Source: Planctomycetota bacterium (lineage in GTDB: Bacteria > Planctomycetota > Phycisphaerae > WQYP01). Taken from it: a stretch of 64,000 nt of DNA. The notes beneath the pieces were generated by a model, which saw nothing but the letters and a program-made list of their open reading frames with translations, was not told the DNA's origin and ran no database searches. Shown piece by piece: positions 17,224 through 59,465 of the stretch; position 1 is the first letter of the stretch, and each line of letters starts with the position of its first letter. Made by a program: the position numbers and the translations under genes. The stretch lies in the NCBI GenBank assembly GCA_021805985.1, contig JAJZDN010000019.1:4947-68946 (forward strand), written 5' to 3'.

Positions 17224-17640
17224 GCATGAGCACCGGATGATTAATCCGGTGGTTGATCCAATGCCACCGGGGCGGACGGGGTTACGGGTTACAGGGGACA
17301 GGGGACGCAATGAATGAGTAATGAGTAGAAGCTGGGGAACGATGGGGATATCACCGGAGCACCGGATGGTAATCCGGTGGTTGATCCAGTGCCGCCAACC
17401 ACCACCAAGTTATCAGAACGGCGCTCTATGACACGCTGCACCCTCCGTGAGCACCGGATGGTAATCCGGTGGTTGATCCAGTGCCGCCAACCCACCACCG
17501 GGTTATCACCACGGTGCTCGATGACACGCTGCGCCCTCCGTGAGCACCGGATGGTAATCCGGTGGTTGATCCAATGCCGCCAACCCACCACCGGGTTATC
17601 ACCACGGTGCTCCATGACACGCTGCGCCAGTCGCGACAGG
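17224..17640. repeat. MITE-like palindromic elements: one partial copy plus three tandem 93-bp units (gagcaccggatggtaatccggtgg...ccaccgggttatcaccacggtgctc)
   Basis: Each unit has ~24-bp terminal inverted repeats with an internal caccggat/atccggtg hairpin. The same ends recur at 28773, 31083 and 59325. Confidence 0.75.
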
Positions 17641-28635: not shown

Positions 28636-28772
28636 AGATCAGGACCACCTTTCAAAGGAAACTATAGCGATTCCGGGGGCACACGCAAGGCTGGCCCGGA
28701 GTAAAACTGGCTCCGCATCTTACCGCTATATACGATCATCGCCTGGAAAAGTTGGGCCTGTTGGGGGAGCAT

Positions 28773-29061
28773 CCCGCCATAGAGCACCGTGGTGATAACC
28801 CGATGGTTGGCCTGGGGACCAGGTTACGGGTTACGGGGGACAGTTACAGGGAGGGGGGTGTCAGTAATTGCAGTAATTGCAGTATTATCAGTACATTCAG
28901 AGTTTGGAACCTAGAACCTGGAATCTGGAATGTCGAACGTACTGCCAATACTGATAATACTGAATGTACCGCCAATACTGTCCCCTGTAACCCCGTCCGC
29001 CCCGTCCGCCCCGGCGGCACTGGATCAACCACCGGATTATCATCCGGTGCTCTACAAGATT
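28773..29061. mobile_element. MITE-like element (~290 bp) with terminal inverted repeats and internal microsatellites
   Basis: Left end gagcaccgtggtgataacccg...gggttacgggttacgggggacag; right end ctgtcccctgtaacccc...cggattatcatccggtgctc is its reverse complement. The interior has cagtaattgcagtaattgcag and ggaacctagaacctggaatctgg repeats. A reverse-oriented REP motif follows at 29075-29103. Confidence 0.6.
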
Positions 29062-31026: not shown

Positions 31027-31082
31027 ACCGTGTGAAAAAAAGGTGTCAGGTACCTTTTTTCTTTAACGCGGTGCGCCCGCCG

Positions 31083-31331
31083 AGCACCGGATGATTAATC
31101 CGGTGGTTGATCCAGTGCCGCCGGGGCGGGCGGGGTTACAGGTTACGGGTTACAGGTTACAAGGGGACAAGTATTGGCGGTACATTCAGTATTATCAGTA
31201 TTGGCAGTACGTTCGACATTCCAGGTTCCAGGTTCCAGGTTCCAGGTTCTAGGTTCTAGGTTCTAGGTTCTAGGTTCCAATCCCTGAATGTACTGATAAT
31301 ACTGCAATTACTGGTTTATCACTGCGGTGCT
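31083..31331. mobile_element. MITE-like element of the same family as 28773-29061
   Basis: Left end gagcaccggatgattaatccggtggttgatccagtgccgcc...gggttacaggttacgggttacagg; interior ggttccagg/ggttctagg microsatellite; right end ...cactgcggtgctc. Confidence 0.6.
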
Positions 31332-31349
31332 CTATGACCCGATTGAAAA

Positions 31350-32501
31350 TCACGGCTTTGCCCGTACAGCCGATTTACCGGCTTTAATAAATGCGTCCAC
31401 CTGTTGTCCAACATACAGTGGAAACGGTGCCGAACCCATGCGGTAAACCACTTGCAGCACGCGGGTTTCAACTTGCTCGGTCGGAGCGCCGGTAAGATTC
31501 TGCTTGGGCACGACAAAAGGCTCAATACGTAAAAACGTCAATGGAATTTGCTGGCGTGTCATGCCGCGCACAAAGCACATGGCAGCTTCCGCAGGATTAA
31601 ATCTAGACGCATCTTCCTGATCTATTTGCAGCCGCACGTTTAAATGCCGAATATCTCCCAGAATGAGCGCCGCCAGCTGGGGATTGTCGGTGATGTTCTC
31701 TATCGCGGCGGTATCCGCAAATTGCCCGGGACGGATGTTAATGCGCAGAACTGTGCCATTAATGGGCGCACGGACTGTCAGTAAATCGAGACTGACCATC
31801 GCCTGTTCCAACTGCGCGTCATTGCCTGCAATCGTGGCGCGGGCAGCCAGCACCTGGGTTTTGGCGATGGTAATATCCCGGCTCCATGTGCCGGCATTAA
31901 ACTGTGCCAAATCGGCTTTCGCCTTTGCCAACTGCGCTTGGGCTGTCAGCCAGGCAAAGCGTCGATCCGCGACGTCATCAACGGATAGGGCATCCGTGCC
32001 GATCAACGGCTTGATGCGTTGCCAGCGCTGTTGGTCATTGCTATACGTGGCCTGGGCCGCCTGCACCGCCGCCAGATAGGTCAGGCGATCCACCGCGCGC
32101 GGCGGTGATTGCAGCTTTGCTAAATTGGCCTTGGCCTCCGCCAGTTGTGCCTGGGCTGTCAGTACCCCGGCTCGGGCCAACGCCACTTGCGCCTTGGCCT
32201 GCCGGGTATCCAGTTGAAAGAGTTTCTGCCCCTTAACCACCCGCTGATTCCATACGACAAATACATGCGTCACCACGCCGCTGATGAATGGCGAAACCGC
32301 GATGGTGCGGCTTTCAGGCTCAATAATGCCGGACGCGGCAATCGCGTTGGTATACGGATTCCCCGCTGGATGCACCGCCGGCGGAACTGACCGGTAATGA
32401 TGGGTACTGCGTTTTACCGCAATAACGCCAATAGCAGCGCCGGCGATGGCCAGAATAGGAACCAAATATTTCCGAATCATATATTTCCTCAAACAACTCA
32501 A
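31350..32501 (-). CDS. HlyD-family membrane fusion (periplasmic adaptor) protein, DevB/MacA-like
   Basis: N-terminal TM, long coiled coil (AKAQVALARAGVLTAQAQLAEAKANLAKL...) and a beta-barrel C-terminus. The ATG overlaps the ATPase stop (ATGA); an alternative ATG at 32480 has a good RBS. Confidence 0.8.
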   Translation of the reverse strand: MSCLRKYMIRKYLVPILAIAGAAIGVIAVKRSTHHYRSVPPAVHPAGNPYTNAIAASGIIEPESRTIAVSPFISGVVTHVFVVWNQRVVKGQKLFQLDTRQAKAQVALARAGVLTAQAQLAEAKANLAKLQSPPRAVDRLTYLAAVQAAQATYSNDQQRWQRIKPLIGTDALSVDDVADRRFAWLTAQAQLAKAKADLAQFNAGTWSRDITIAKTQVLAARATIAGNDAQLEQAMVSLDLLTVRAPINGTVLRINIRPGQFADTAAIENITDNPQLAALILGDIRHLNVRLQIDQEDASRFNPAEAAMCFVRGMTRQQIPLTFLRIEPFVVPKQNLTGAPTEQVETRVLQVVYRMGSAPFPLYVGQQVDAFIKAGKSAVRAKP

Positions 32502-33214
32502 GCTGCGCCGGTTACGACCGTATCAATAATTTTGCCATCTTCCATGTGGGCGATTCGATCGGAAAAGTGGAAAATGCGACTATCATGCGTCACCACAATC
32601 ACCGCCCGATCAGGCCGCACCGCGATGGTTTTAAGTAAACTGATGACCTGTTCGCCGGTCTTTCCGTCCAGAGCGCTGGTGGGTTCATCACATACCACCA
32701 GCTTAGGTTCGTGCACCAGCGCCCGAGCAAATGCGATACGTTGCTGCTGTCCGCCGGAAAGTTCACGGGGGTAGCTTGTCAGCCGCGTACCCAGTCCCAT
32801 TTTATCAAGGAAATCCCCCGCCCGATCCAATGCCCTCCGCCGCGGCCAGCCCAGTACCAACAGCGGTATGGCGGCATTTTCGACAGCCGTGAGTTGCGGC
32901 AAAAGATTAAACTGTTGAAATGCAAAGCCGACATTTCTTCCACGAAATCGGGCCTTAGCGTTGTTGCCCAAGGCCAGAAGATCCTGCCCAAATAGATGAA
33001 TCTCGCCGTCATCGTGATTCAAAATGCCGGCAATTACCGAAAGTAATGTGGTTTTACCACAGCCGGATGGCCCAACCAGCATCAGCAGTTCACCAGTGAA
33101 AACATCCAGTGTTACACCGGCCAACGCGTAATTAACCGCATTCCCCTGGCCGAAGGATTTTTTAACTCCGCGGCACTGCACCGCAACATTTCCCTGCTGC
33201 AAACTCATTGGCAC
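32498..33214 (-). CDS. ABC transporter ATP-binding protein (MacB/LolD/DevA-like)
   Basis: Walker A GPSGCGKTT, signature LSGGQQQR, Walker B LVVCDEPTSALD, H-loop VTHD. Confidence 0.85.
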   Translation of the reverse strand: MPMSLQQGNVAVQCRGVKKSFGQGNAVNYALAGVTLDVFTGELLMLVGPSGCGKTTLLSVIAGILNHDDGEIHLFGQDLLALGNNAKARFRGRNVGFAFQQFNLLPQLTAVENAAIPLLVLGWPRRRALDRAGDFLDKMGLGTRLTSYPRELSGGQQQRIAFARALVHEPKLVVCDEPTSALDGKTGEQVISLLKTIAVRPDRAVIVVTHDSRIFHFSDRIAHMEDGKIIDTVVTGAA

Positions 33215-33251
33215 CCCATGCGCTGTGGTAACTGCTGGTGGGTTTCACAAC

Positions 33252-34391
33252 TCATTTGAACACCACTGCCGGCTCAAGTTTCACAACCGATACCAACGAG
33301 AACAGACTGGCGAAAATAACAATGAAAATCATTCCAATTCCGGTTACGGCCATAATTTGCCATAGAAAAACCGCCAGCCGTTCGCTGGGCGGGGTAAAAT
33401 GCAAAATCAGCATGTTCGCCGCGCCGCTTATGCCAATTCCGATACCAAAGCCCAGTACCCCGGTAACAATCGCCTGCAGCAATACCATGCGGACAAGTGT
33501 GAAATCGGTTGCTCCCATGGCCTTTAGTGCGCCCAGGTACCGCAGATTATCATGCGTGAATTGATACAGCGTCTGGCCGGCAATGGCGATTCCAACCAAT
33601 GCGCCCAGGCTGATGGTAATGCAGAAATTGATCGGAATACCCGTTGATTTCATGTAATACCAGAATGTTTTACTGGCGATGCCAGCCTTGGTGTACGCCT
33701 CCAGCCCGGTGCGGTGCTCAATGCGCTGGCACAGAGCTGTGAAATTCTGCTTTGGCCGCGCCTTAACCAGTATTACCGCGAGCTGATGGCGCTGCGCGGG
33801 TGCCCAATTGGCGGCGCGACTATACGTGGTATAAATAATGGGTAGCCCCTGGAAACTTAAAGCGGTTCGGCACAACCCCGTTACTAATGCACGGTTGCCA
33901 TTAATCTGTATGGTTTGACCGGGCTTGATGTTGCCAAGTTTGTCCTGTGCATAGGCCGCATCTACCAGCACGCCATGCGATATTCTCAGCGCGTTAATGG
34001 TTATGCCGCCCAGCAATTTTGGCGGTCCGCCCGCCAGAGCCTGATCGCCCAGACCAAGTAGAAGACAGGTTTGAAATTTGCCATCCGAAAGCCGCACTTG
34101 AACATCCTGCCGGAATAGCCGCGTGGCCCATAAAACACCGGGTATCGCTTTAACCCGATATAGGTCATCCTCGCTCATGGGTCGCAGATCATCGACATCT
34201 TCCATGGGACGATTTGTCACCCAGATATCGGGCGTGCTGATGTTGGTCACAATGCCATAAGTGCTGCGCATCAGGCCGACGAAAATATTTAACTGCTGCG
34301 AAATAAGAAATGTCGCCAGCGCAATGCCGATAATAATACCAATATATTTAACGCGATCACCAACCAACATCCTCAGGGCGATAAAATTCAT
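33252..34391 (-). CDS. ABC transporter permease, FtsX/MacB-type (DevC-like)
   Basis: ~380 aa with an N-terminal TM, a large periplasmic domain and three C-terminal TM helices. Start at ATG 34391 after GGGAGA. Confidence 0.75.
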   Translation of the reverse strand: MNFIALRMLVGDRVKYIGIIIGIALATFLISQQLNIFVGLMRSTYGIVTNISTPDIWVTNRPMEDVDDLRPMSEDDLYRVKAIPGVLWATRLFRQDVQVRLSDGKFQTCLLLGLGDQALAGGPPKLLGGITINALRISHGVLVDAAYAQDKLGNIKPGQTIQINGNRALVTGLCRTALSFQGLPIIYTTYSRAANWAPAQRHQLAVILVKARPKQNFTALCQRIEHRTGLEAYTKAGIASKTFWYYMKSTGIPINFCITISLGALVGIAIAGQTLYQFTHDNLRYLGALKAMGATDFTLVRMVLLQAIVTGVLGFGIGIGISGAANMLILHFTPPSERLAVFLWQIMAVTGIGMIFIVIFASLFSLVSVVKLEPAVVFK

Positions 34392-34498
34392 GATTCGTTT
34401 CTCCCTAGGTTGGCCGCAAGACTTCCACAGTACCATTTGGGCGTAAAATCAGCCGCAGCATTTTAGGCGTGCCAGCGTGGCCGGGCTACTTCACGCTC

Positions 34499-34861
34499 TC
34501 ATGCTTTCATGCCAATCATGACCACACCAATTAAAATGAAAAGAATGCCCAGCCAGCGTTGCCGGGTCATGTGCTCTTTGAGGAAATATGCCGAACAGAA
34601 CGCGACTGTGGCAAAACAGATAGCACCCATCGGAAAGGCGATAATCAGCGGCATAAAATGTAACGTCCAGGTCCAGAAAATTGACTCGGCAATAAAGGAT
34701 ACAATCGCCGCCTGAGTCCAGTGGTTGGTGAGAATTTGCCGCAGTATGCCACCGGCTCCCGGCGGCATTCCGCGGGTGCCGACTTTCATGGTCACCTGTC
34801 CCACTGTTTCCAAAACCACCGCGCCGGAAAAACTCAGCAGCCCCGTCCAATACACGTTCAT
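34499..34861 (-). CDS. small EamA/DMT-superfamily 4-TM transporter (ArnE/ArnF-like)
   Basis: 120 aa, four TM helices. ATGA overlap with the upstream paralog. Confidence 0.5.
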   Translation of the reverse strand: MNVYWTGLLSFSGAVVLETVGQVTMKVGTRGMPPGAGGILRQILTNHWTQAAIVSFIAESIFWTWTLHFMPLIIAFPMGAICFATVAFCSAYFLKEHMTRQRWLGILFILIGVVMIGMKA

Positions 34862-35298
34862 CCAGTCGCCTCCGAAGTACCCGGCGGCTGCTGCGCGGCC
34901 ATGACCCGCCGGGGCGACTCGGACGGCGTGCGACTAACCAGAACCACTCCAACCAACACCAGGGCGATACCGCAAAATTGAAGCGGATCCAGATTTTCTG
35001 AAAAAAGCCAATGGGAACTTATCGCCACGACAATATAGCTTAAGGCTGTGATTGGCTGGACAAAGCTTAAATCCGCCAAAGCCAGAACCATCATCCAGTT
35101 AAACAACTGCCAGACGTGTAATAGCAGGCTCAGCAGAAATAGAGGTTTAATCAGCGTAGCCCCCAGAGCATGCGCCATTCCGCCGTGCTGGGGAACTGAG
35201 GCACGCCAGCACAGTTGCACGCTGGTGTCCAGAGAAATCGCCAGAAAAAGCCCGATCCACAGCAGTAGCCGGGGACGCTTTGGAGCAGGAATGCTCAC
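34858..35298 (-). CDS. small EamA/DMT-superfamily transporter, paralog (ArnE/ArnF-like)
   Basis: 146 aa, four TM helices. GTG start overlapping the SGNH gene stop. Confidence 0.45.
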   Translation of the reverse strand: MSIPAPKRPRLLLWIGLFLAISLDTSVQLCWRASVPQHGGMAHALGATLIKPLFLLSLLLHVWQLFNWMMVLALADLSFVQPITALSYIVVAISSHWLFSENLDPLQFCGIALVLVGVVLVSRTPSESPRRVMAAQQPPGTSEATG

Positions 35299-36029
35299 GC
35301 TTTAAATCCCATCTCCGCGGAGCGGGATTGTTCCAGTACCGTTTGAAGGACCACCGCTAATTCGCCGGCGATCAGCGCATGGGCATGATCGTTGGGATGC
35401 ACGCCATCGGGCCCGGATACGCTTTCCGGTGGCAAGCGGCTTAGCGACGTGCCGTACCGCACAAACGGGCAATCCAGTTCCGCGGCTACTTCTGCAGCTG
35501 CTACGCGATACACTTCCAGTTCCCTATCGGATACCGGCTGCCCTCCATGCCCCTGGATCATCGCGCTGACATCTTTGCCGCTTAATTGCGATAAATATCG
35601 GCCGCGAATTTCCAGCGAGTGATTAGGCATATCCGTGAGAATCGGCCGCGATCCGGCGGCGATTATTTTATGCGCAATTTTTGTCAAGTTGGCGGCATAT
35701 CGATCCACGCGAATGCGATTCTGTACAATTTTTCCGTTGCTGATAACAAAACGTTTCCACAGCAAATCCACATCATTGCCGCCCAGCATCACCAGCACCG
35801 CATCAGGATGGTGCTCCTGCAGCAAGGGGTCCATAAGTTCCACCGCGTCGGCTGTGGTGCGATGAATGTCCGCGTCCACAATAAATTTGATGTCCGGCAA
35901 TTGTGTCCGGAGGATATCCAGATAGCTCCGCTGGACGCGACCCGTTACATCGGTGCCACGGATTTCTGCAATTCCCAGGCTGATGCTGTCGCCGACAATC
36001 AATAACGTTCGCTGTTGTTTATCAGGCAT
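35295..36029 (-). CDS. SGNH/GDSL-family hydrolase
   Basis: LLIVGDSISLG (GDS block I), GGNDV (block III) and DGVHPN (block V with the catalytic His). Confidence 0.7.
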   Translation of the reverse strand: MPDKQQRTLLIVGDSISLGIAEIRGTDVTGRVQRSYLDILRTQLPDIKFIVDADIHRTTADAVELMDPLLQEHHPDAVLVMLGGNDVDLLWKRFVISNGKIVQNRIRVDRYAANLTKIAHKIIAAGSRPILTDMPNHSLEIRGRYLSQLSGKDVSAMIQGHGGQPVSDRELEVYRVAAAEVAAELDCPFVRYGTSLSRLPPESVSGPDGVHPNDHAHALIAGELAVVLQTVLEQSRSAEMGFKA

Positions 36030-37434
36030 GGGCGGCCTCCTTGCTATTTGGCACTCCGGAATTTACGGCCGCGTCAGTGTAATCGTGCCGGTGATCCACC
36101 ATGCGTTTGAGCTTGCGATCATGACGCAGAGAACCGGGCGCATGCGTAATCAAACGCATATCAAATATACCAATATCCAGGTTTTTGGTCAGATCCGGAT
36201 ATTGTAAACGCATCTGCTCCTGGACCTCCCGTCGCAACTGTTGGTCATCGGTGCCAAGGCACTCCACGTGAATTTCCATGATCTCTCTTAACCCATCGAG
36301 TTTGAACACCACCTGCCAGTCATGCGTTAAACCCTTCACAGGCCGCAAAATATTTTCAAACATCAGTGGATATAAATTGCCCCCGCTGGCGACAATTAAT
36401 TCGTCACGGCGACCCCGGAGGCGGCTCATGCGCATACCTTTTAGGCCGCAGGGACATTGTTCAGTAATCAAACGCGTGATGTCTCGGGTACGATAGCGCA
36501 ACAGGGGCATCACTGTGCGGCGCAAGGTTGTAAACACCAGTTCCCCAAGACCGCTGGTGTCCGGTTCAAGGATCTCCGGGTAAAAGTCAGTGTCGTCGAG
36601 ATGATAAACGTCCGGTTGATCGCAGGGTTGATATCCCATGCCGCCGCCGAGTTCTACGCTGCCATAGCACATGCGAACTTTAGCACCGTGCCAGACGCGG
36701 TTCATCCATCCGATGGCGTCGCGCGGCATTTCTTCCGCTCCGCCGATCAACAGTTTCAGCGGTACACTGCCGTGTTCTTCAGCTAATTCCGTCAGACGAA
36801 TCAGCCAGGTGGGTTCACCCATGATGACATTAAACTCATACTGCTTAAGCCGCCGATAGACCTCCATCGGATCAACTTTTCCAAAGGCCATGCAAAAGCA
36901 CTTGGTCCTCATCAAAGCATTATGCACCAGCATGCCGGGAATCCACATGGAAAAATCAAACGCGTTGGCCACCCGATCGGTGGATCGCAGCCCCATCACC
37001 TGCAAGCCTGCCGCATCAATTTGGGCAATTTGCGACAACTCGCTTTGATCATAATAAATCTGTTTATTTTTTCCGCTGGTTCCGGAAGATTCAAAAACAA
37101 TATTTGGTGCCCGACAGATAAAGGCCTTGGGATCTGCGACAATATCCTCCGGCATGGTATAAAAATCACCGAGATCTGCCGGCGTGCGAACTTTAGCCGG
37201 ATCAATGCCGCGGTCATGGAAGGATTTGCGATAAAATGCGCTGTGGCGACCGACATATTTCACAATCTTTCGGAAGCGCTGTGCCCGAAGTGTCGCCACG
37301 AGCCCCGGCGGCATGGCCTGATAAATGCGCGCCGTGTTCTCCGGACTAAGCTGGTCAGCAAAAAAGTCTACCGGATTGAATTTCAGATAACATCCTTTCA
37401 AACGTCGGCTGCTGTTTACCGCAGCTCTGAGCAT
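36022..37434 (-). CDS. phenylacetate-CoA ligase-family adenylate-forming enzyme (PaaK/CapK/F390-synthetase-like)
   Basis: 470 aa. SSGTSGKNKQIYY is the AMP-binding P-loop; the overall length and layout match the PaaK-like acyl-adenylating family. Confidence 0.65.
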   Translation of the reverse strand: MLRAAVNSSRRLKGCYLKFNPVDFFADQLSPENTARIYQAMPPGLVATLRAQRFRKIVKYVGRHSAFYRKSFHDRGIDPAKVRTPADLGDFYTMPEDIVADPKAFICRAPNIVFESSGTSGKNKQIYYDQSELSQIAQIDAAGLQVMGLRSTDRVANAFDFSMWIPGMLVHNALMRTKCFCMAFGKVDPMEVYRRLKQYEFNVIMGEPTWLIRLTELAEEHGSVPLKLLIGGAEEMPRDAIGWMNRVWHGAKVRMCYGSVELGGGMGYQPCDQPDVYHLDDTDFYPEILEPDTSGLGELVFTTLRRTVMPLLRYRTRDITRLITEQCPCGLKGMRMSRLRGRRDELIVASGGNLYPLMFENILRPVKGLTHDWQVVFKLDGLREIMEIHVECLGTDDQQLRREVQEQMRLQYPDLTKNLDIGIFDMRLITHAPGSLRHDRKLKRMVDHRHDYTDAAVNSGVPNSKEAAHA

Positions 37435-37438
37435 GTTT

Positions 37439-38794
37439 CTATCGCGCTGCCTTCATGGCCTGCCCGATAGCCCGCGTTGTAATTTCCAGGTCCTCGGCAC
37501 TGTGTGCCGCGCTGATAAACCAACAGGCCGAACCGGAACTGTTGACATGCACACCCTGCATCAACAACGAATGCCTGAATGCCGCGTAGCGCTGTGTGTC
37601 CACCTTCAGCAAATCGCGATAATGCTTCAACGCCTGTCCGTCCTCATTAAACAGCACCTGAAACATGCTACCCACGCCCTGCACCACGCACGCAATGCCC
37701 GTGTCTGCCGCAGCCCGGCGAATCGCTTCCATGCAGCTTCGGCCATGGCTGTGGATTTTTTCCAATGTTCCCGGCTCATTTATTTTGCGCAACGTATAAA
37801 GTGCGGCCGCGGCACACAACGGATTGCCATTGTACGTGCCGCCGTGTTTTACAACATTGGCACCCACCTGTTCCATTATCGCCCGGCGGCCCGCAAAAGC
37901 GCTAATGGGAAATCCGCCGCCGATAGCTTTGCTGAAAATAGTCAGATCCGGCGTAACCCCAAAGTATTGTGCCGCTCCGCCCCGCGCCAGGCGAAAGCCA
38001 GTAACAATTTCATCATAAATCAGCAAAATTCCCCGTTTGTCGCATTGCTCCCGCAGCCATGGCAGCAGTCCGTCTTCCGGCATAATGCAGGCATTATTAG
38101 CCACAATCGGTTCTAAAATAATCGCCGCCGACTCCTCGCCATGTTCATTAAGCAATTGTTCAATAAGGTCCTTGTGATTCCATGGGGCAATAATGACATC
38201 CCCGCTGACACCTTCCGGAATCCCCCGCGAATGCGGGCTGTTATGCGGGTGATCCAGCGGGCCGGCTTCAGCGGTCGTCGGACGGTTGCTCACGGCCAGC
38301 ACATCGATCCAGCCATGATAGTGTCCCTCAAATTTGATAATCCGATTGCGACCGGTAAATCCGCGCGCCGCGCGAATGGCCCCGCTGATGGCTTCCGATC
38401 CGGAATTCGCATAACGCACCAGTTCAGCTCCGGGAACCATGGCGCAAATTTGTTCAGCCAATTCCACCTCTACCGTGTTGCACGTGCCGAACATCGTGCC
38501 GCGGTCCAGTTGTTGCTGCACTGCCCCGATCAGGCCGCCGTCAGCATGCCCCAGAATTGCACTACCATAGCTAAGCAGATAATCAATAAATTCGTGGCCG
38601 TCCACATCCCACACGTGTGATTTGTTCCCCCGGTCAATGTACAGCGGATAAGGCAGCGGCCCAGTAGTGGAACTGCGCGCCGAACTGCTAATTCCGCCCG
38701 CCAGCACCTGCTTGGCCCGCCCAAACCATTGTTGAGATTGGCTCGTGGCATGAAGGTCTGTTAGGCCCAGAGGATGTACCATCGTTTGTGTCAT
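37439..38794 (-). CDS. class-III PLP aminotransferase (glutamate-1-semialdehyde aminomutase-like)
   Basis: YGSAILGHADGGLIGAVQQQLDRGTMFG...YANSGSEAISGAIRAARGFTGRNRIIKFEGHYHGW is a diagnostic HemL-like pattern. Confidence 0.8.
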   Translation of the reverse strand: MTQTMVHPLGLTDLHATSQSQQWFGRAKQVLAGGISSSARSSTTGPLPYPLYIDRGNKSHVWDVDGHEFIDYLLSYGSAILGHADGGLIGAVQQQLDRGTMFGTCNTVEVELAEQICAMVPGAELVRYANSGSEAISGAIRAARGFTGRNRIIKFEGHYHGWIDVLAVSNRPTTAEAGPLDHPHNSPHSRGIPEGVSGDVIIAPWNHKDLIEQLLNEHGEESAAIILEPIVANNACIMPEDGLLPWLREQCDKRGILLIYDEIVTGFRLARGGAAQYFGVTPDLTIFSKAIGGGFPISAFAGRRAIMEQVGANVVKHGGTYNGNPLCAAAALYTLRKINEPGTLEKIHSHGRSCMEAIRRAAADTGIACVVQGVGSMFQVLFNEDGQALKHYRDLLKVDTQRYAAFRHSLLMQGVHVNSSGSACWFISAAHSAEDLEITTRAIGQAMKAAR

Positions 38795-38798
38795 AGGT

Positions 38799-40121
38799 CT
38801 ATTTTACCGGTAAAGTTGTCCAATGTATTGCACACAGCGCAAATGACAGCGCCGCTTCATGCACCGCTTTAAGCTCTACGTATTCATCCACGCCATGCGC
38901 CTGCTCCAAGCTGCCGGGACCCCATACCAGCGTGGGTGTCTGATCCATACCCCAACGCAAGCCCGCTTCGCAACCTGCGTTAAAACCCCGCCATGACATG
39001 GTGTTTGCTGTTAAACCACTATCTGTCATTGCCGCCAATGCACTTTGCGCCAGCGGATGTTGCTTGGATAATTCATGGCCGCCATATTCTTCAGAAAATT
39101 CAATATCCAGGCGGCACCCGCTATCTTTCCCTTTTTGCTGCAATTCGCACAGCCGATCTTGAAACCGCTTTTTCCAAACTTCAACATCATCCGCTGGCAG
39201 CAGTTCCAGGTACCCCGCACACCCGGCCAGGTCACACGTGGCACCCTGCCAATTTCCCCCCTCTATATGATCCACCGTAATGGGGCGCATAATAGGATAG
39301 TGGGCAAACAGCTCATTGGGGTCGAGCACGGCAAATTCCGTTTCCATAAGCTCCAGGTGTTCCAGCACCGCCCGCAAAGCGACAATGGCGTCGGTTCCCA
39401 ACCATTTGACTGTGCCATGCACCGCTTTACCGTGTAATCCAATGGCGAATCTTACGCCGCTGCGCGACGCATTCCGCGGTTGTCCCTCCGTGGGTTCCAG
39501 CACAATTAATCCATCCGGATGATAGCCCCGCACGTAACTGGTTAATGTGCCCAAACCTACGCAATCCTCTTCGCCAGGAACAATTTCCACCATCACATCG
39601 CCGGGCAGGCCCTGCGGATACGCGTTTTTCAACGCCAATAGCGCCGCCAACGCACTGGCCAGCGGGCCTTTTACATCGCAAGCGCCCCGGCCATAAATCC
39701 GCCCCTCGGCTATTTCCCCCGACCATGGGCCATGCGCCCATCGCTGTGCATCACCGGGTGCAATGACATCGCTGTGCGCATTAAACATCAAGCTGCGGCC
39801 AAGGCCACGTCCTGGAAATTTGATAACCAGAGTGGGTCTCCCGGCCAGCGGAATATGCCGTAAAGTTGCTTGCCGATAGGCACTAAGTTGCGTTTCTGAA
39901 GACTCAAACAAATCCGCTTCAAAGCCATTTTGCTTCGCCCATCGGCTGATAAATACGACCAGATCGCGCTCGTTGCCGCTGGTGGAGGGAATTTGCAACA
40001 GTTTCTCCAGCAGTTCCTGCGTGGCTGCCTGACGCTGACGCAGAATATTTTCCAGTTCGCGTTGTAGATTCTGCGATGGTGTGGGAGATGCTGCGCGTTG
40101 GGTCGTGGTTATTGCAGGCAT
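38799..40121 (-). CDS. M20-family metallohydrolase (ArgE/DapE/N-acyl-amino-acid deacylase-like)
   Basis: MFNAHSDVIAPG and GRGACDVKGPLAS are the metal-binding blocks of the M20 family. Confidence 0.7.
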   Translation of the reverse strand: MPAITTTQRAASPTPSQNLQRELENILRQRQAATQELLEKLLQIPSTSGNERDLVVFISRWAKQNGFEADLFESSETQLSAYRQATLRHIPLAGRPTLVIKFPGRGLGRSLMFNAHSDVIAPGDAQRWAHGPWSGEIAEGRIYGRGACDVKGPLASALAALLALKNAYPQGLPGDVMVEIVPGEEDCVGLGTLTSYVRGYHPDGLIVLEPTEGQPRNASRSGVRFAIGLHGKAVHGTVKWLGTDAIVALRAVLEHLELMETEFAVLDPNELFAHYPIMRPITVDHIEGGNWQGATCDLAGCAGYLELLPADDVEVWKKRFQDRLCELQQKGKDSGCRLDIEFSEEYGGHELSKQHPLAQSALAAMTDSGLTANTMSWRGFNAGCEAGLRWGMDQTPTLVWGPGSLEQAHGVDEYVELKAVHEAALSFALCAIHWTTLPVK

Positions 40122-40155
40122 AAGGCTCGCATTCTTCCGTTTGGTTTAGAGCGAT

Positions 40156-40851
40156 TTATATCGCTGCTACCTGCGATGTCCATGCCCCATTCATGGTCGC
40201 GGCAATTTCGTGCAGGCTGTTGTATGGAATATAGGCGTGTTGCCGGTCCGCCAATTCCTGCGCCAGAACTCCTTTGGCAAATACCACATCGGCCTGCCGG
40301 GCCGGGCAAATATCACTGCGGCCGTCGCCTATATAAATAGTTTTCCGCCGCCCTACATGCAGTTCGCGGGCGCTGCTGCATTTACAATGGGCTGCCGCTG
40401 ATAAGCAAAATTCCGTTTTATGTGGACAGACCAAGTGAAGCTGCTGATCCATTCGAGCGATTCGATTGGCCCGAATTTTAACATCGCCCACATTAAAGCG
40501 GTTGAGAATTCTCCGGATAAATTTTTCAATCCCATCGCTGAGAATAGCAAATGGGACGTGATACTGCCGGAGCAGGGCAATAAGAGGAAGAAATCCCGGA
40601 TCAATTTCCACTTGATCGATAAAATCGTAAAGATCGTTATCTGAAATGTCCAAAAGTGAAAATTCTTCCCGTAAACACGCTTCTGAGCCGATCAATCCAG
40701 CTTTCCATCGCTCTTCCACGAGTTTCCATGATTCATTGCGCGAGAACTTATTCACCAGTTCGTCCAGCACATCTTGACGCGAGATCGTGCCGTCAAAATC
40801 AAACCACACCTGTGCGGCATGGGGATCCGGTAAAATCACTTTTTTCACCAT
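40156..40851 (-). CDS. HAD-IB-family phosphatase (PSP/MtnX-like) with an extra Cys cluster
   Basis: WFDFDGTIS (motif I DxDGT), later IYIGDGRSD (motif IV). Insert CPHKTEFCLSAAAHCKC. Start at ATG 40851 after AAGAGGAA. Confidence 0.6.
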   Translation of the reverse strand: MVKKVILPDPHAAQVWFDFDGTISRQDVLDELVNKFSRNESWKLVEERWKAGLIGSEACLREEFSLLDISDNDLYDFIDQVEIDPGFLPLIALLRQYHVPFAILSDGIEKFIRRILNRFNVGDVKIRANRIARMDQQLHLVCPHKTEFCLSAAAHCKCSSARELHVGRRKTIYIGDGRSDICPARQADVVFAKGVLAQELADRQHAYIPYNSLHEIAATMNGAWTSQVAAI

Positions 40852-41046
40852 GACAATTCCTCTTAACCCAATCATGGCTTTTCGGCCCCGCAGGGCCTTA
40901 TGTTGCCGCCGGGAGTGCTGTGAGAAAACCAGTTTTAAATCCTCGAAAAATGGGAATTTTTATCCCATTAATCGCCTGCGTTCCAAAGTCGATTAATATC
41001 TTATAGCAAACGGGGGGTGAATATCAACCGTGGTCAATAGTGGCCG

Positions 41047-41112: not shown

Positions 41113-41423
41113 CGATGTTGCGAATCCATGTTGCGAATCCAGGGCCTCAACGGCGGCTATAATGCAGCAGGCTAATGCGGATGGAAAATAACAAGCGGAT
41201 TGGAGTATCCGACATTTGTGCCAGTGCTTTGCTTAATGCGGTACGGAGGCTTGCAGGGTTATTACCGGCGGCCGCCAAACTTGGTCCTAGGCAATCCATG
41301 ATGGGGCTTGATTCCAAGTGAAAAGTGGGATTCTGAAGAAGCCAGATCCGCCGACGACAGGGGAAAGGAAATGGCTTTCTCAAAGCGGTCAGGCGGTTTC
41401 GTTGAAACAGTCGGGGAACGTCT

Positions 41424-42392
41424 ATGCTGTACGACCGAATGAACCGGAGTATCGGATACCTGCGATTATCCATCACACAGGCTTGCCAATTGCGCTGCAT
41501 CTATTGTCGGCCCGCGCTCCACCAAAATCATACCGACGGCATGTTGACACCTGCGGAATTCGGGCAGATCGCGCATCACTTCATCCTCCACCATGGGGTG
41601 CAGAAAATTCGCATTACCGGCGGTGATCCAACCGCCCGTGGGGATTTGCCGGAAATAATTGGAACAATTGCCACAGGGCATTCGGATATTGACCTGGCGA
41701 TGAGCACCAACGGTTTGGCATTGGGCCGCCTGGCGGCTACCTGCAAAGCCTCCGGCTTAAAACGTGTGAATATCAGCATGGACACGCTGGATGAATCAAC
41801 ATTTGAACGTTTAAGCGGCCGGCGCGGCGTTGGTCAGGTCATTGCCGGCATTGATGCCGCGATTGCCGCAAACCTCGCCCCGGTAAAACTCAATATGGTG
41901 GTAATGCGCGGCATCAATGACGGGCAATTGGCATCCATGGTCGATTTCGCGGCACAGCGAAACATAACACTCCGTTTTATTGAACTTATGCCCATGGGAC
42001 CCCTGGCACCGAATTGGCATCAGCATTACGCACCGGCGGCCAGCATCCGCAGAAGCCTCGAGCCTCTGACGCTCTCTTGGCGACCCCTCGAGCAGGGTGC
42101 AGAAAGCAGCCGGAATTTTCGCGTCGTGCTGCGCGATGGAAGAGAAGTATCGCTGGGTTTTATCACCCCGATGAGTTGCAATTTCTGCGGCAACTGCAAT
42201 CGCCTGCGCATTTCCTGCACCGGCGATATTTTTCCTTGTCTGATGAACCGGCCGCGCGGAACGCTTCTGCCCGCGCTGCGGCCGAAATATGACCCGTTGC
42301 GTTTTGACGCACTTCTGGCGGAGGCGTTGGCGGCAAAAGAGGCGGAACATCCGCACGATGGCTTTGCAGTGATGACCAGTATTGGAGGCTAA
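41424..42392 (+). CDS. moaA: GTP 3',8-cyclase MoaA (radical SAM)
   Basis: YLRLSITQACQLRCIYCRP (CxxxCxxC) and a C-terminal second cluster motif. Confidence 0.9.
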   Translation: MLYDRMNRSIGYLRLSITQACQLRCIYCRPALHQNHTDGMLTPAEFGQIAHHFILHHGVQKIRITGGDPTARGDLPEIIGTIATGHSDIDLAMSTNGLALGRLAATCKASGLKRVNISMDTLDESTFERLSGRRGVGQVIAGIDAAIAANLAPVKLNMVVMRGINDGQLASMVDFAAQRNITLRFIELMPMGPLAPNWHQHYAPAASIRRSLEPLTLSWRPLEQGAESSRNFRVVLRDGREVSLGFITPMSCNFCGNCNRLRISCTGDIFPCLMNRPRGTLLPALRPKYDPLRFDALLAEALAAKEAEHPHDGFAVMTSIGG

Positions 42393-42508
42393 TTCATGGG
42401 GCACCCCGCGGGTAACCACACGACCGCATTCAAAAACATTACAGGCGGGGGATTAATGCGCGACCCCTGCCCTGAGTATGAGGCCAGAGTTGGAAAGCGT
42501 GAATACCT

Positions 42509-42757
42509 ATGAAATTGACCGTACAGCTCTTTGGATCGGCGGCCGAACTGGCCAACCGGACGCGGCTAGTGGTGGAAGTGTGTGATAAAACCGTGACTTG
42601 CACACGCTTGCGTACTGTCATCGTTCAATATTGTCCGCAGATTGAGAACCTTATGCCGTCTGCGCGGCTGGCGATAAATTGTTCCTATGTCGCGGAGGAT
42701 ACGCTCGTGTCGGATCAAGATGAAATCGCGCTAATTCAGGCGGTGGGGGGCGGATGA
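42509..42757 (+). CDS. moaD: molybdopterin synthase sulfur-carrier subunit MoaD
   Basis: 82 aa, ubiquitin-like, ends in GGG. Confidence 0.7.
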   Translation: MKLTVQLFGSAAELANRTRLVVEVCDKTVTCTRLRTVIVQYCPQIENLMPSARLAINCSYVAEDTLVSDQDEIALIQAVGGG

Positions 42758-43167
42758 GCGTGACTGTTGAATTTTGTGACGGCCCGGTCGTTGTGCGTCG
42801 GCCTCGGCCTGAACCAGTCGTTGGAGCAGTGGTGATGTTCGAAGGCATTGTGCGGGCGGAAGAAAATGGCCGGCGGATTGTCGCCTTGGATTATCGCACG
42901 TATGACCCCATGGCGGAACGGGAGTTAAAACGCCTTGCGGATTCCGCAGTCAGCGCATTCGATTTGGCCATGCTGCTGGTGCTGCATAGTCGCGGATTGG
43001 TGCCGGAGGGGAATTGTTCCTTTCTGTTGGTGACGGCGGCCAAGAATCGCAAACCCGCGCTGCTGGCGATGGATTGGTTTATCGATGCGCTTAAACGCGA
43101 TGTGCCGATCTGGAAATACCCTGTGTGGGCAACTGAAATGAACACTGCGATGGGAGTTGGATCATGA
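42754..43167 (+). CDS. moaE: molybdopterin synthase catalytic subunit MoaE
   Basis: VGAVVMFEGIVR...LVLHSRGLVPEG...AAKNRKPALLAMDWFIDALKRDVPIWK. ATGA coupling to moaD. Confidence 0.85.
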   Translation: MSVTVEFCDGPVVVRRPRPEPVVGAVVMFEGIVRAEENGRRIVALDYRTYDPMAERELKRLADSAVSAFDLAMLLVLHSRGLVPEGNCSFLLVTAAKNRKPALLAMDWFIDALKRDVPIWKYPVWATEMNTAMGVGS

Positions 43168-44354
43168 ATGCCCCACATCCTGAGACAGCCTTCAGGCAAC
43201 TGGCAGAGCGGATGCCCGATATCGGAGTTCAGACCGTACTTTTATCAGATGCCGCTGGCCGGATTCAGGCCATGCCTCTGCTTGCCAATCGCGATAGTCC
43301 ACCGTTTGATTGCAGTTCAATGGATGGATTCGCCGTCAGGTTGAAGGACCTGACAGCATCCGATCTGCCCGTGCGGGGCGAAGGGCGTTTGGGGCAAGAG
43401 CCGCCAGCACTGGAGGCGAATGCCGCCGTGCGAGTCTCCACGGGCAGTCCAATTCCGATCGGTGCAGACACTGTGATTCCCGTGGAAGATGCCCAGGAGA
43501 AAGACGGACGCATCGCCCTGGCCGGCGGAGCGCAACCGCATATTGGCCAGAACATCCGCCGACGCGGAGAAAATGCAGTCGCAGGTACAACGATATTGGG
43601 AAGTGGTGTCATTCTCCGTGCAGCGCACATAGGAGCGATGGCGGCTTTCGGACACTCGAAGGCAAGCGTCCGTAACCGCCTGCGCATAGCGGTAATTACC
43701 ACCGGTGATGAATTAATACCTCCCGGCTGCCCCGTGACCCAATGGCGCATTATAGACAGCAATTTGGCGGCCTTATGCGCCTCGGTCTTGTGTATTCCAT
43801 GGCTGGAACTGGTGGCGGCTGTGCGGGTAGCCGATGATGTCGCCGCCATGACGGCCGCCCTTCACGGCGCGCTGGCGAATGCGGATGTAATATTAACCAC
43901 GGGCGGCGTATCCAGGGGACATCGCGATTTTATGCCGGCGGCAATACGCGCTGCCGGTGGGGAAGTCTTATTTCACCGCCTGCCAATCAAGCCCGGCGGC
44001 CCGGTTCTTGGAGCGATAGCTGCGGGAAAGGCAGTATTCGGCTTACCAGGAAATCCAGTATCCGCGTTGGTCTTATGGAGGCGTTTCGTTTTGCCATGTC
44101 TGGCATTGCACGTTGGCTGTAGCCGAAGTTTCGGTGCCGACCTCCAGGTTGAGCTGACCAATCCGCCGGATGATCTGCCTATGAAATGGTGCTATCGCCT
44201 CGTACGGATTGCGGGCATTGGACGGGCGGAACTGATCCGCTGCGCCAGCTCTGGCGATATTCCGGCGGCCGCAACCTCGGATGGATTTATTGAGGTACCA
44301 CCTGATAAAACGACGGACGTGACATTCCCTTTTTTTTCCTGGAGTATTGCATGA
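43164..44354 (+). CDS. moeA: molybdopterin molybdotransferase MoeA
   Basis: VRVSTGSPIPIGADTVIPVED, ITTGDEL and TTGGVSRG motifs. Confidence 0.85.
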   Translation: MNAPHPETAFRQLAERMPDIGVQTVLLSDAAGRIQAMPLLANRDSPPFDCSSMDGFAVRLKDLTASDLPVRGEGRLGQEPPALEANAAVRVSTGSPIPIGADTVIPVEDAQEKDGRIALAGGAQPHIGQNIRRRGENAVAGTTILGSGVILRAAHIGAMAAFGHSKASVRNRLRIAVITTGDELIPPGCPVTQWRIIDSNLAALCASVLCIPWLELVAAVRVADDVAAMTAALHGALANADVILTTGGVSRGHRDFMPAAIRAAGGEVLFHRLPIKPGGPVLGAIAAGKAVFGLPGNPVSALVLWRRFVLPCLALHVGCSRSFGADLQVELTNPPDDLPMKWCYRLVRIAGIGRAELIRCASSGDIPAAATSDGFIEVPPDKTTDVTFPFFSWSIA

Positions 44355-44857
44355 ACAAACGCACGCATCCAACCGATACGTTGACACATATCAATGAAGA
44401 TGAATTGCCATCAATGGTGCGCATTGTGAACAAGCCGGTCGCTGCGCGAAAAGCCGTCGCGATAGGGACGGTGTATATTAATGCCGCTCTGGCTGCGGCA
44501 ATCCGCCAGAACGCCGTCAGCAAAGGGCGGGTACTGGATGTCGCGCGATTGGCGGGGATACAGGCCGCCAAGAAGACTTCGGAACTGATCCCGCTGTGCC
44601 ATCTGATCCTGTTGGAAAGCATCGACCTTACGGTGCAATTGCGGGGGCACCGGGTGCAAATCCGCGCAGCGGTTGAAGCCAACTGGAAAACCGGTGTTGA
44701 AATGGAAGCACTTACCGCGGTCGCAGTGGCCGCGTTGACGGTATATGACATGGGGAAGGCTCTGGACCGTGCGATCCGGATCGATTCCGTACAACTCTTG
44801 GAAAAAACCGGTGGAACGCGTGGCAACTATCGTTTAAGGAAAGGGAAAAAGCCGTGA
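44351..44857 (+). CDS. moaC: cyclic pyranopterin monophosphate synthase MoaC
   Basis: ELIPLCHLILLE...GVEMEALTAVAVAALTVYDM. Confidence 0.9.
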   Translation: MNKRTHPTDTLTHINEDELPSMVRIVNKPVAARKAVAIGTVYINAALAAAIRQNAVSKGRVLDVARLAGIQAAKKTSELIPLCHLILLESIDLTVQLRGHRVQIRAAVEANWKTGVEMEALTAVAVAALTVYDMGKALDRAIRIDSVQLLEKTGGTRGNYRLRKGKKP

Positions 44858-45363
44858 CTTGGAAAGCCGCCATCCTCACCTGTTCCGACCGCTGCGCCCG
44901 TGGTGAAGCGGAGGATCGAAGCGGGCCGGCGCTGGCTGAAGCGGCGCGGAAACACCTTGATGCGGAAATCATCGCCATGGCGTGCGTTGCGGACGATATT
45001 CCAGCGATTCAGGCCAGATTACGGGAATGGTCATCGGGAAATCAGGCCGTGGATCTGATTTTGACCACCGGAGGCACCGGCCTTTCACCGCGCGACAATA
45101 CGCCGGAAGCGACGCGGCCTCTGATTGGTAAGTGCGCTCCCGGCTTAATGGAGCTGGGGCGACTGCGTTGTCTTTCTAAGACACCACGGGCATATCTGGG
45201 CCGCGGAGAGGCCGGGCTGATTAATCGCACGCTAGTGCTGAACCTCCCCGGATCGCCGCGTGGTGCCGTGGAATTTTTGGAATCGCTTGCCGATGTGTTA
45301 CCCCACGCTTTGGCCATCGCCCGCGGAGCGAATCATGACCACGGCGATGAATTACATCAATGA
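44854..45363 (+). CDS. mogA: molybdenum cofactor biosynthesis protein MogA/MoaB
   Basis: AAILTCSDR...DLILTTGGTGLSPRDNTPEATRPL...PGSPRGA. Confidence 0.8.
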   Translation: MTWKAAILTCSDRCARGEAEDRSGPALAEAARKHLDAEIIAMACVADDIPAIQARLREWSSGNQAVDLILTTGGTGLSPRDNTPEATRPLIGKCAPGLMELGRLRCLSKTPRAYLGRGEAGLINRTLVLNLPGSPRGAVEFLESLADVLPHALAIARGANHDHGDELHQ

Positions 45364-58729: not shown

Positions 58730-59465
58730 TTAGTATTTAGTATTTAGGAGTTAGGAGTTGGGAGTTAGGAACTGGCTTAGGTTACAGGTTACGGGTTACA
58801 GGGGACAGCCGGCGAAATGCGGGGCAGTGATTTTCTTTAGGGTCACGACGGGAAAGAACCGCGGATCACACGGGCATCGGGCGGCGGCTCGATAGAGCAG
58901 AGAAAGTCGAGCAGGTGAGCAGTAGAGCAGATTCGGCTGGCGCAAAAGAGTGGCTTTCGCCGTAATAAAAGGCCTCCTGCGGCCGAGTGGAGCCGTGGCG
59001 TATCGGGCGGGTTATTTACTTTTCAAGCAGCAGCAGCATCAATGATCAATGATCAAAGAGCGGTATTGGGAAAGCTATAGGGCGCGGAGGGCGAGCGTAA
59101 TGGGTAGTGAATAATGAGTAATGAGTAATGAATAGAGAGGAGGAGTTGGCTTAGGTTCCAGGTTCCAGGTTACAGGCCGCACGGGGCGGAGGATCCACCG
59201 ATTTCACCGATTACACAGATTTCTGGTCTGGCGGCGCACGAGGTTACGGGTTACGGGTTACAGGGGACAGCGGCCGACGCAAAGAATAACGGGTAATGAG
59301 TAACAACTGGGGAACGATGAGGATATCACCAGAGCACCGGATGGTAATCCGGTGGTTGATCCAGTGCCGCGAGCCAACCGCGGGCTGGATGAGATTTCAG
59401 ATCTCAGATTCCAGGTTCCAGATTCCAGATTCCAAATTCTTTCGGCAGTATGGTCGCCAGATCGG
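58730..59465. repeat. composite repetitive region (microsatellites ttagtatttag/gttaggagtt/ggttacaggttacgggttacagg/ggttccagg, REP-module fragments, one gagcaccggatggtaatccggtgg copy)
   Basis: Shares modules with 13284-13705, 17224-17640, 28773-29061 and 31083-31331. The ORFs called here are artefacts. Confidence 0.6.

Follow-up and report, generated by a model that had tools for sequence, protein, structure and literature searches.

Ten co-directional genes on the minus strand of a planctomycete contig (JAJZDN010000019.1, class Phycisphaerae) raise the question of whether they act as one pathway, and of what such a pathway might make. The window, the whole 64,000-nucleotide (nt) stretch of this contig that was analysed, supplies all coordinates below. 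The initial annotation proposed that the ten genes together make and export a lipid-linked or amphiphilic envelope component, with a DevCAB-type pump as the exporter. Pfam and NCBIfam profile searches of the window proteins bear out the ten open reading frames (ORFs) at 31350-40851, their domain assignments and their spacing, and the gene-caller coordinates of an identical public contig agree. Comparison with related loci divides the genes into a predicted seven-gene operon, vertically conserved in Phycisphaerae, which probably builds and exports an amide-linked amino compound, and a pump that is a dispensable accessory cassette outside the conserved pathway.

The features are listed here in the direction of transcription. 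Gene calls on the identical public contig refined the starts of the HAD (40851), ligase (37401), permease (34391), ATPase (33208) and adaptor (32480) genes; lengths are in amino acids (aa).
40852-41043, minus strand: non-coding stretch, leader or promoter, that accompanies the operon, recognised by DNA homology to loci L004, L005 and L060
40156-40851, minus strand: HAD-IB phosphatase, MtnX/PHOSPHO1-like, 231 aa (TIGR01489, PF12710, PF06888)
38799-40121, minus strand: M20 metallo-deacylase of ArgE/DapE type, 440 aa (PF01546, PF07687)
37439-38794, minus strand: class-III aminotransferase, HemL/GntE-like paralogue, 451 aa (PF00202)
36022-37401, minus strand: PaaK-superfamily adenylate-forming ligase, 459 aa, alternative ORF start at 37434 (PF00501, PF14535)
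35295-36029, minus strand: SGNH/GDSL hydrolase, 244 aa (PF13472)
34858-35298, minus strand: small membrane protein 1 of the EamA/drug-metabolite transporter (DMT) type, 146 aa (PF00892)
34499-34861, minus strand: small EamA/DMT-type membrane protein 2, 120 aa (PF00892)
33252-34391, minus strand: FtsX/MacB_PCD permease, ORF start at 34436 (Pfam MacB_PCD, FtsX)
32498-33208, minus strand: ABC ATPase (Pfam ABC_tran)
31350-32480, minus strand: HlyD-type adaptor (Pfam HlyD)

A conserved operon and a separable pump

From an alignment of ligase homologues, 64 loci (numbered with L) were fetched from species-representative genomes, and the ten window proteins were mapped on them. They include 52 non-redundant Phycisphaerae-type loci with ligase identities of 56%-92%, whose carriers come from soils, lakes, peat and caves. 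Denominators are assessable loci; ORF calling in the high-GC loci is heuristic, and the EamA genes were counted by tblastn, a method with low sensitivity for small membrane proteins. The aminotransferase is the most conserved protein in the block (49/49 loci), and is joined by the M20 protein in 48/48, the HAD phosphatase in 42/43, the SGNH hydrolase in 39/48, EamA protein 1 in 19/44 and EamA protein 2 in 24/44. Order and strand of the HAD, M20, aminotransferase and SGNH genes are invariant wherever these are present. Because order and strand are kept across dozens of species-level genomes, the arrangement of the first four to seven genes is more than chance, and the earlier view of the first seven as a real functional unit holds.

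In one Tepidisphaeraceae chromosome (OY969783.1, L003/L024 8586-9876), the aminotransferase appears in two tblastn segments and is called as a 174-aa fragment, which is either a frameshift in a long-read assembly or a pseudogene.

The DNA alignments delimit the unit. Positions 41043-34499 align as a single piece to relatives whose flanks differ on both sides; homology to L004, L005 and L060 starts at 41040-41043 and continues across the seven genes, and the upstream flanks of L004 and L060 are unlike that of the window. In L004, which is 87% identical at the DNA level, the alignment runs from 41043 to 34499, breaks exactly at the stop codon of EamA protein 2, and restarts at 31027. The intervening pump segment, 31028-34498 (3,471 nt), is replaced there by about 147 nt. 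The unit is thus 34499-41043, and the pump is a separable cassette. Within the unit, successive genes are separated by gaps of 34, 4 and 4-37 nt and then by overlaps of 8, 4 and 4 nt, the first overlap being that of the SGNH start with the ligase stop. The gap between EamA protein 2 and the permease is 107 nt.

Rfam scans of the whole window and a 700-nt leader gave no riboswitch or other RNA match. A consensus scan placed one weak sigma-70-like site in the leader (41027-40998). Promoter and terminator consensus scans overall were at or below shuffle expectation, so they are uninformative on transcription units.

The pump is missing from L004, the closest relative, from L060, and from 41/44 loci overall; counted by gene, the permease is found in 3/44 and the adaptor in 3/42 of the Phycisphaerae loci. 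It occupies the same position in three relatives, with 93-97% protein identity. Its domains are PF12704 and PF02687 in the permease, which has about four transmembrane (TM) segments, PF00005 in the ATPase, and HlyD_D23 and HlyD_3 in the adaptor, which has an N-terminal anchor. The proteins miss the cut-offs of all three Dev models: DevA (TIGR02982) at 218.2 against 295.8 bits, DevC (TIGR01185) at 44.8 against 290.35, and DevB (TIGR02971) at 78.9 against 129. The system is therefore best named a generic MacB-type tripartite pump, and the proposed DevCAB-type exporter is not supported. As in MacAB and DevBCA systems, an FtsX permease with a MacB periplasmic core domain occurs together with a separate ABC ATPase and an anchored HlyD-type membrane-fusion protein. 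In contrast to those systems, the Dev cut-offs are missed, the genes run in the order C-A-B without an adjacent gene for an outer-membrane factor, and the pump is not conserved with the pathway.

Two inverted-repeat arms of about 250-270 nt lie at 28771-29039 and 31096-31343, with matching segments of 75 nt (97%), 40 nt (98%) and 68 nt (88%). They consist partly of 7- and 9-nt tandem units (GGTTACA, GTTCCAG, AGTAATTGC) and enclose a segment with the MarR gene, the flavodoxin-like gene and a 132-aa ORF; the right arm adjoins the pump adaptor gene. Both arms are missing in the pump-less, 87%-identical L004, and both are present in L005. Elsewhere in the window, a 93-nt tandem repeat occurs in three to four copies at 17228-17628 and also at 59331-59370 and 58780-58802. 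Its core, GAGCACCGGATGGTAATCCGGTGGTTGATCCAGTGCCGCC, holds a CACCGGAT/ATCCGGTG hairpin and is common to the inverted-repeat arms. The 93-nt repeat and the arms belong to one dispersed repeat family of this genome, resembling repetitive extragenic palindromic (REP) sequences or miniature inverted-repeat transposable elements (MITEs).

The proteins of the operon

The aminotransferase matches PF00202 at 224 bits. The broad NF000818 "subfamily" model accepts it (423.8 bits, cut-off 398), and its best PDB matches are glutamate-1-semialdehyde aminomutases (GSAMs, or HemL). However, it falls below the hemL equivalog TIGR00713 (406.7 against 527.3 bits) and below the GntE equivalog (403 against 525). 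It is 39-40% identical to one bacterial and one plant HemL, whereas those two share 53%. The HemL motif FEAGF, kept in the two reference HemLs, is replaced by xACWF in 36/36 full-length Phycisphaerae orthologues, and the changes of YHGH to YHGW and of TLSGNP to TYNGNP are likewise invariant in the 36. FEAGF carries the HemL-specific glutamate (Glu406 in Synechococcus numbering), a residue credited with excluding 2-oxoacids. Both the pyridoxal phosphate lysine (motif FGKIIGGG) and the arginine of the GSAM motif SPVRAF are retained. HemL and GntE, the latter of guanitoxin biosynthesis, are thus the nearest sequence relatives (about 40% identity, 404-407 bits), but the HemL active-site glutamate motif is replaced and both equivalog cut-offs are missed. 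A search of the fetched loci (1.1 Mb, loci only and not whole genomes) revealed no further GSAM-like gene. By these features the enzyme appears to be a non-HemL paralogue, as the initial annotation had suspected. Because the lysine and the SPVRAF arginine are kept and the HemL-type glutamate motif is lost, it would fit a conventional transaminase whose substrate bears an acidic group (carboxylate or phosphate).

The ligase retains the P-loop SSGTSGKNK and has PaaK as its best PDB match (136 bits). It falls far below the PaaK equivalog TIGR02155 (151.5 against 646.3 bits), the FlxY model NF053551 (116 against 520) and the DVU_1553 model (157 against 300). A HMMER scan of 1.84 billion representatives found just 57 proteins related to it at E<=1e-30, among them about a dozen full-length clusters at 35-41% identity, beneath which scores fall to generic PaaK-like levels. 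Neither the window ligase nor these 35-41% relatives, which also fail the FlxY model, reach any named NCBIfam family. The ligase therefore belongs to a small unnamed clade of the PaaK superfamily, and the "CapK-like" label first given to it reflects resemblance at the generic superfamily level. The 470-aa form of the ORF has no exact database match; the 459-aa form is on record. A role as PaaK in phenylacetate catabolism was rejected on the equivalog score and because none of the 60+ loci contains paaABCDE, paaG or paaZ-type genes.

The HAD phosphatase carries the motifs DFDGT and GDGRSD and passes the MtnX-like HAD-IB subfamily TIGR01489 (119.5 bits, cut-off 81.55). It fails the MtnX equivalogs (95 against 292 and 76 against 303), so the methionine-salvage MtnX was rejected; an aminoethylphosphonate (AEP) phosphonatase was rejected because that enzyme belongs to a different HAD subfamily. 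The M20 protein passes the Pfam M20 (PF01546, 85 bits) and dimerisation (PF07687) domains and falls short of the ArgE/DapE subfamily TIGR01910 (194 against 217.6 bits). Its candidate metal and catalytic residues (H116, D149, E184, E185, H409) were read by eye and not alignment-mapped. Its top match is PRK06915, a model for YodQ-type deacetylases of acetylated beta-lysine catabolism.

The SGNH hydrolase matches PF13472 at 49.6 bits (gathering score 32.9), with weak TesA similarity. It has the catalytic blocks GDS (VGDSIS), GGND and DGVHP and lacks a hydrophobic N-terminus. Recognisable catalytic motifs are therefore intact in the HAD, SGNH and ligase proteins, those of M20 being judged by eye only. 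PDB searches with the ligase, M20, HAD and SGNH proteins returned generic family members only. The five enzymes are all free of hydrophobic segments and are thus predicted to be cytoplasmic.

The two small EamA proteins both have hydrophobic segments. Protein 1 matches PF00892 at 27 bits, slightly under the cut-off, and protein 2 at 31 bits. Against the ArnE and ArnF models (NF011625, cut-off 92; NF002816, cut-off 99), protein 1 scores 23.9 and 20.7 bits, and protein 2 scores 40.4 and 40.6 over its full length. Matches of 21-41 bits against cut-offs of 92-99 do not sustain the "ArnE/F-like" label, and the window holds no arn-type neighbours and no ArnA, ArnC or ArnT equivalents.

A core triad and its possible product

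The ligase, HAD and aminotransferase recur together outside Phycisphaerae. In Omnitrophota, an MtnX-like HAD gene and a class-III aminotransferase gene of another subfamily, related to acetylornithine/GABA transaminases, precede a ligase gene whose product is about 50% identical to that of the window. Two unrelated metagenomic lineages (L072/L073 and L068) likewise have the three families side by side. The aminotransferases of Omnitrophota and L072 share 63% identity, but only 23-25% with the Phycisphaerae enzyme. Because it recurs in Omnitrophota and two further lineages, the triad emerges as the ancient core; in Phycisphaerae, a HemL paralogue has taken the place of the aminotransferase, and the M20 and SGNH genes and the EamA pair have joined.

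Several loci vary this theme. In the metagenomic L068 (753-7937), a class-III aminotransferase, a HAD and a second, distant PaaK-like ligase (24-26% identical) are followed by Amidohydro_2, an alpha/beta hydrolase, an 82-aa ORF, an ABC-2 exporter and the clade ligase; L068 is a two-ligase variant of the triad. In L051 (418-7036), from a bin labelled Actinomycetota, HAD, aminotransferase and ligase occur with an arginase-fold hydrolase, a full-length 262-aa EamA transporter and a FemAB-like transferase, so accessory genes travel with the triad outside Phycisphaerae. Within Phycisphaerae, the block is often extended by a GT4 glycosyltransferase (in 9 loci) or a FemAB-like transferase (in 14); additional genes in Tepidisphaeraceae loci encode a GH114-like hydrolase, a fatty-acid desaturase and an arginase-fold hydrolase whose metal motifs (GDFHH / DxHPD / DKD) are intact. 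In PDB profile searches, the arginase-fold protein has a weak agmatinase/arginase match only and the FemAB-like protein nothing significant. No homologues of the GT4, FemAB-like, arginase-fold, desaturase or GH114-like proteins occur elsewhere in the window. An NSS-type transporter gene follows the ligase in two Omnitrophota loci. A threonine-synthase-like gene upstream in one Omnitrophota locus was set aside because it is not recurrent.

From these families we infer a route that would aminate, ligate, dephosphorylate or deprotect, and translocate. The HemL-like aminotransferase would aminate a carbonyl of a primary metabolite that is phosphorylated and/or acidic, giving a primary amine. The PaaK-like enzyme would adenylate a carboxylic acid, aryl or fatty, and either join it to the amine or load it on CoA or an acyl carrier protein (ACP) for transfer. 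The MtnX-like phosphatase would take off the phosphate handle, and the M20 deacylase and the SGNH esterase/thioesterase may strip N-acyl and O-acyl or thioester groups, deprotecting or remodelling the molecule. Finally, the two EamA-type proteins could form a heterodimeric DMT translocator that moves the product across the inner membrane, and in this strain the MacB-type pump may carry it further out.

We lean toward an amphiphilic or envelope-associated product, for example an aminolipid or a glycolipid/glycan decoration, because of the GT4, GH114-like and desaturase genes in Phycisphaerae and the contexts of relatives 35-41% identical to the window ligase:
L072/L073: ACP, FabF, a UgtP-like diglucosyl-diacylglycerol synthase, HAD and aminotransferase
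L070: inositol-1-phosphate synthase, four ketosynthases (KS), two ACPs, an ApeI-like dehydratase (DH) and MlaC/ABC
L074/L075: Wza/Wzz/Wzi, an ArnT-like GT-C, a DegT aminotransferase and KS, ketoreductase (KR), ACP and DH genes
L069: an LpxL-like acyltransferase
L076: GT4, patatin, DegT and an oxidoreductase, with a MacB-type pump nearby
L068: HAD, the second PaaK-like ligase, two hydrolases and the ABC-2 exporter

Known systems offer precedents for this logic. In the HS:2 capsule of C. jejuni, serinol/ethanolamine glucuronamide is made by Cj1437, which produces serinol phosphate, Cj1438C, which forms the amide with ATP, and Cj1435, which removes the phosphate (PMC12409886). This order of transaminase, ATP-dependent amide ligase and phosphatase has the same chemical logic as the triad, though the ligase here is of the PaaK/ANL type and the transaminase of class III, and the window lacks a capsule polymerase and UDP-glucose dehydrogenase. 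ApeH loads an aromatic starter acid on ACP for aryl-polyene lipids (PMC12624758). Starter ligases such as ApeH and FlxY are PaaK-superfamily adenylating enzymes, and 41%-identical relatives of the window ligase adjoin KS, ACP, KR and ApeI-like DH genes. However, the FlxY cut-off is far off, the window has no ACP or KS, and ApeH is likened by description only. Together, the C. jejuni and ApeH precedents support the proposed pathway logic.

The Arn pathway, which adds L-Ara4N to lipid A, likewise aminates, deacylates and translocates by means of a pair of small 4-TM DMT proteins, and EamA protein 2 finds its best named matches, over the full length, in ArnE and ArnF. In contrast to Arn, the scores here are far under the cut-offs, the aminotransferase is of class III and not of the DegT type, the deacylase is M20 and not ArnD, and equivalents of ArnA, ArnC and ArnT are absent from the window. 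The pairs ArgD/ArgE, DapC/DapE and LysJ/LysK combine an aminotransferase and a deacylase in the protect-aminate-deprotect logic of arginine and lysine biosynthesis. As in these pairs, a class-III aminotransferase gene adjoins an M20 deacylase gene, with weak matches to the models. Unlike them, the proteins miss all the equivalog cut-offs, the aminotransferase is of HemL lineage, and no kinase, reductase or acyltransferase is present. No characterised pathway matches the cluster; all its components come from known superfamilies.

The mechanism with an amphiphilic or envelope-associated product is accordingly favoured only tentatively, at somewhat short of an even chance, and several points weigh against it. 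Genes for an ACP, a ketosynthase, an acyltransferase or a glycosyltransferase are missing from the window cluster, and the EamA pair resembles ArnE/F weakly. The lipid association comes from relatives at 35-41% identity, perhaps of other specificity, and the ACP-FabF pair of L072 may be a housekeeping acpP-fabF. The combination of three hydrolases, a transaminase and a CoA-ligase-like enzyme also looks like catabolism, and the FemAB-like, arginase-fold and NSS genes fit a soluble pseudopeptide or amine equally; indeed, the accessory and context associations as a whole are compatible with such a product. Literature searches covering the gene-family combinations, Omnitrophota and Planctomycetes turned up no account of this cluster. 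The envelope or amphiphilic product that was first proposed therefore remains plausible from the ligase-relative contexts and the GT4, GH114-like and desaturase genes, but "lipid-linked" claims too much, because the cluster lacks a glycosyltransferase, a polyprenyl-phosphate transferase and an acyltransferase, and the five enzymes have no hydrophobic segments. The earlier caution against naming the product from sequence was right.

Alternately, the operon might make a soluble secreted small molecule, such as a pseudopeptide or amine-amide antimetabolite, a signal or an osmolyte. Phosphate and acyl groups would then be transient protecting groups removed by the HAD, M20 and SGNH enzymes, with the DMT pair as exporter and the MacB-type pump as an additional exporter here. 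The predicted solubility of all five enzymes and the absence of a lipid or glycan transferase from the window suit this idea, as do the aminotransferase and M20 pairing, which echoes the protect-aminate-deprotect systems above, and the accessory genes of other lineages: the FemAB-like (aa-tRNA-type) transferase, the arginase-fold hydrolase and the sodium-dependent NSS transporter. However, near-universal vertical conservation in Phycisphaerae would be unusual for a sporadic secondary metabolite, the ligase relatives sit mostly in lipid or envelope contexts, and the best named matches of the membrane pair, weak as they are, are lipid-linked-sugar flippase subunits. We regard a soluble product as possible but unlikely.

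A catabolic or salvage route is improbable. On this account, a phosphorylated or acylated amino compound would be imported, stripped by the phosphatase, amidase and esterase, deaminated by the transaminase, and converted by the PaaK-like enzyme to a CoA thioester for breakdown. The gene content has this flavour, since three hydrolases and a transaminase accompany a member of the family that includes phenylacetate-CoA and 2-hydroxyisobutyryl-CoA ligases; the NSS-type transporter, typically for uptake, and the PRK06915 match point the same way. However, the conserved block has no dehydrogenase, thiolase, hydratase or regulator, it is conserved as a fixed unit and not patchily, and the ligase-clade relatives sit with biosynthetic KS and ACP genes. 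The triad is also retained in Omnitrophota, which are small-genome organisms.

More doubtful still is the idea of a single ten-gene pathway in which an ArnE/F-type pair flips a lipid-linked product that then leaves through a DevCAB-type pump dedicated to it. The genes are co-directional with no gap above 107 nt, the pump is retained in place in three highly similar relatives, and ABC-type exporters lie near ligase relatives in L068, L070 and L076. Set against this, comparison with an 87%-identical relative shows the cassette as a clean indel, precisely missing in L004 and L060 and present in 3/44 loci; the Dev cut-offs fail, the gene order is C-A-B, and the window has no equivalents of ArnA, ArnC or ArnT. 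MacB-type pumps are very common in this phylum, so chance adjacency is likely.

The remaining possibility, that the aminotransferase is a genuine HemL in a chance neighbourhood of primary-metabolism genes, can be set aside as highly improbable: the broad subfamily score, the GSAM matches and the enzyme's place as the most conserved protein of the block are outweighed by the missed equivalog, the low identity to HemLs, the three motifs altered invariantly in 36 orthologues, the non-HemL class-III enzyme of triads in other phyla, and strict synteny with four or more non-heme genes.

Surroundings and wider meaning

Downstream, the ten genes are flanked by the convergent flavodoxin-like/MarR pair, and upstream by a divergent moaA operon. 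The latter (41424-45363, plus strand) is a complete molybdenum-cofactor (Moco) operon of moaA, a 38-aa ORF, a moaD/ThiS-like gene (42509-42757), moaE, moeA, moaC and mog; beyond it, a molybdate-type ABC importer is encoded on the opposite strand. The 550-nt intergenic region shared with moaA gave no Moco riboswitch match. A 117-aa ORF at 41147-41500 (minus strand) has no family match, overlaps the moaA start on the opposite strand and is uncalled on the identical public contig, so it is probably spurious. PADLOC gave generic ABC ATPase matches only, with no specific defence-protein model and no defence-system signal.

To return to the envelope-associated product, a bolder form of that reading holds that the triad makes membrane amphiphiles of a new class, by a route not yet described, in bacteria of the Planctomycetes-Verrucomicrobia-Chlamydiae (PVC) group and other uncultured bacteria. 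We offer it as speculation to which we give little weight. For example, an N-acyl amino-alcohol backbone could arise by transamination of a phosphorylated triose-type ketone, N-acylation by the adenylating enzyme and dephosphorylation, the last step by analogy with phosphatidate phosphatase, and could then be glycosylated or translocated. In Phycisphaerae, the M20 and SGNH enzymes would add remodelling steps to such a route, and the DMT pair would serve as its own two-subunit flippase.

The cassette keeps a fixed gene order in 52 species-level genomes of an abundant and almost entirely uncultured class, and its core triad extends to other phyla. In these genomes, an annotation as HemL-like or as "phenylacetate-CoA ligase" should be read neither as heme synthesis nor as aromatic catabolism, the HemL paralogue being likely to be mislabelled by annotation pipelines, and the neighbouring pump should not be counted in the pathway. 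Identification of the product would give a function to the unnamed clade of adenylating enzymes and to the HemL paralogue, and could uncover a novel lipid of the envelope, or a novel exported metabolite, in PVC bacteria.

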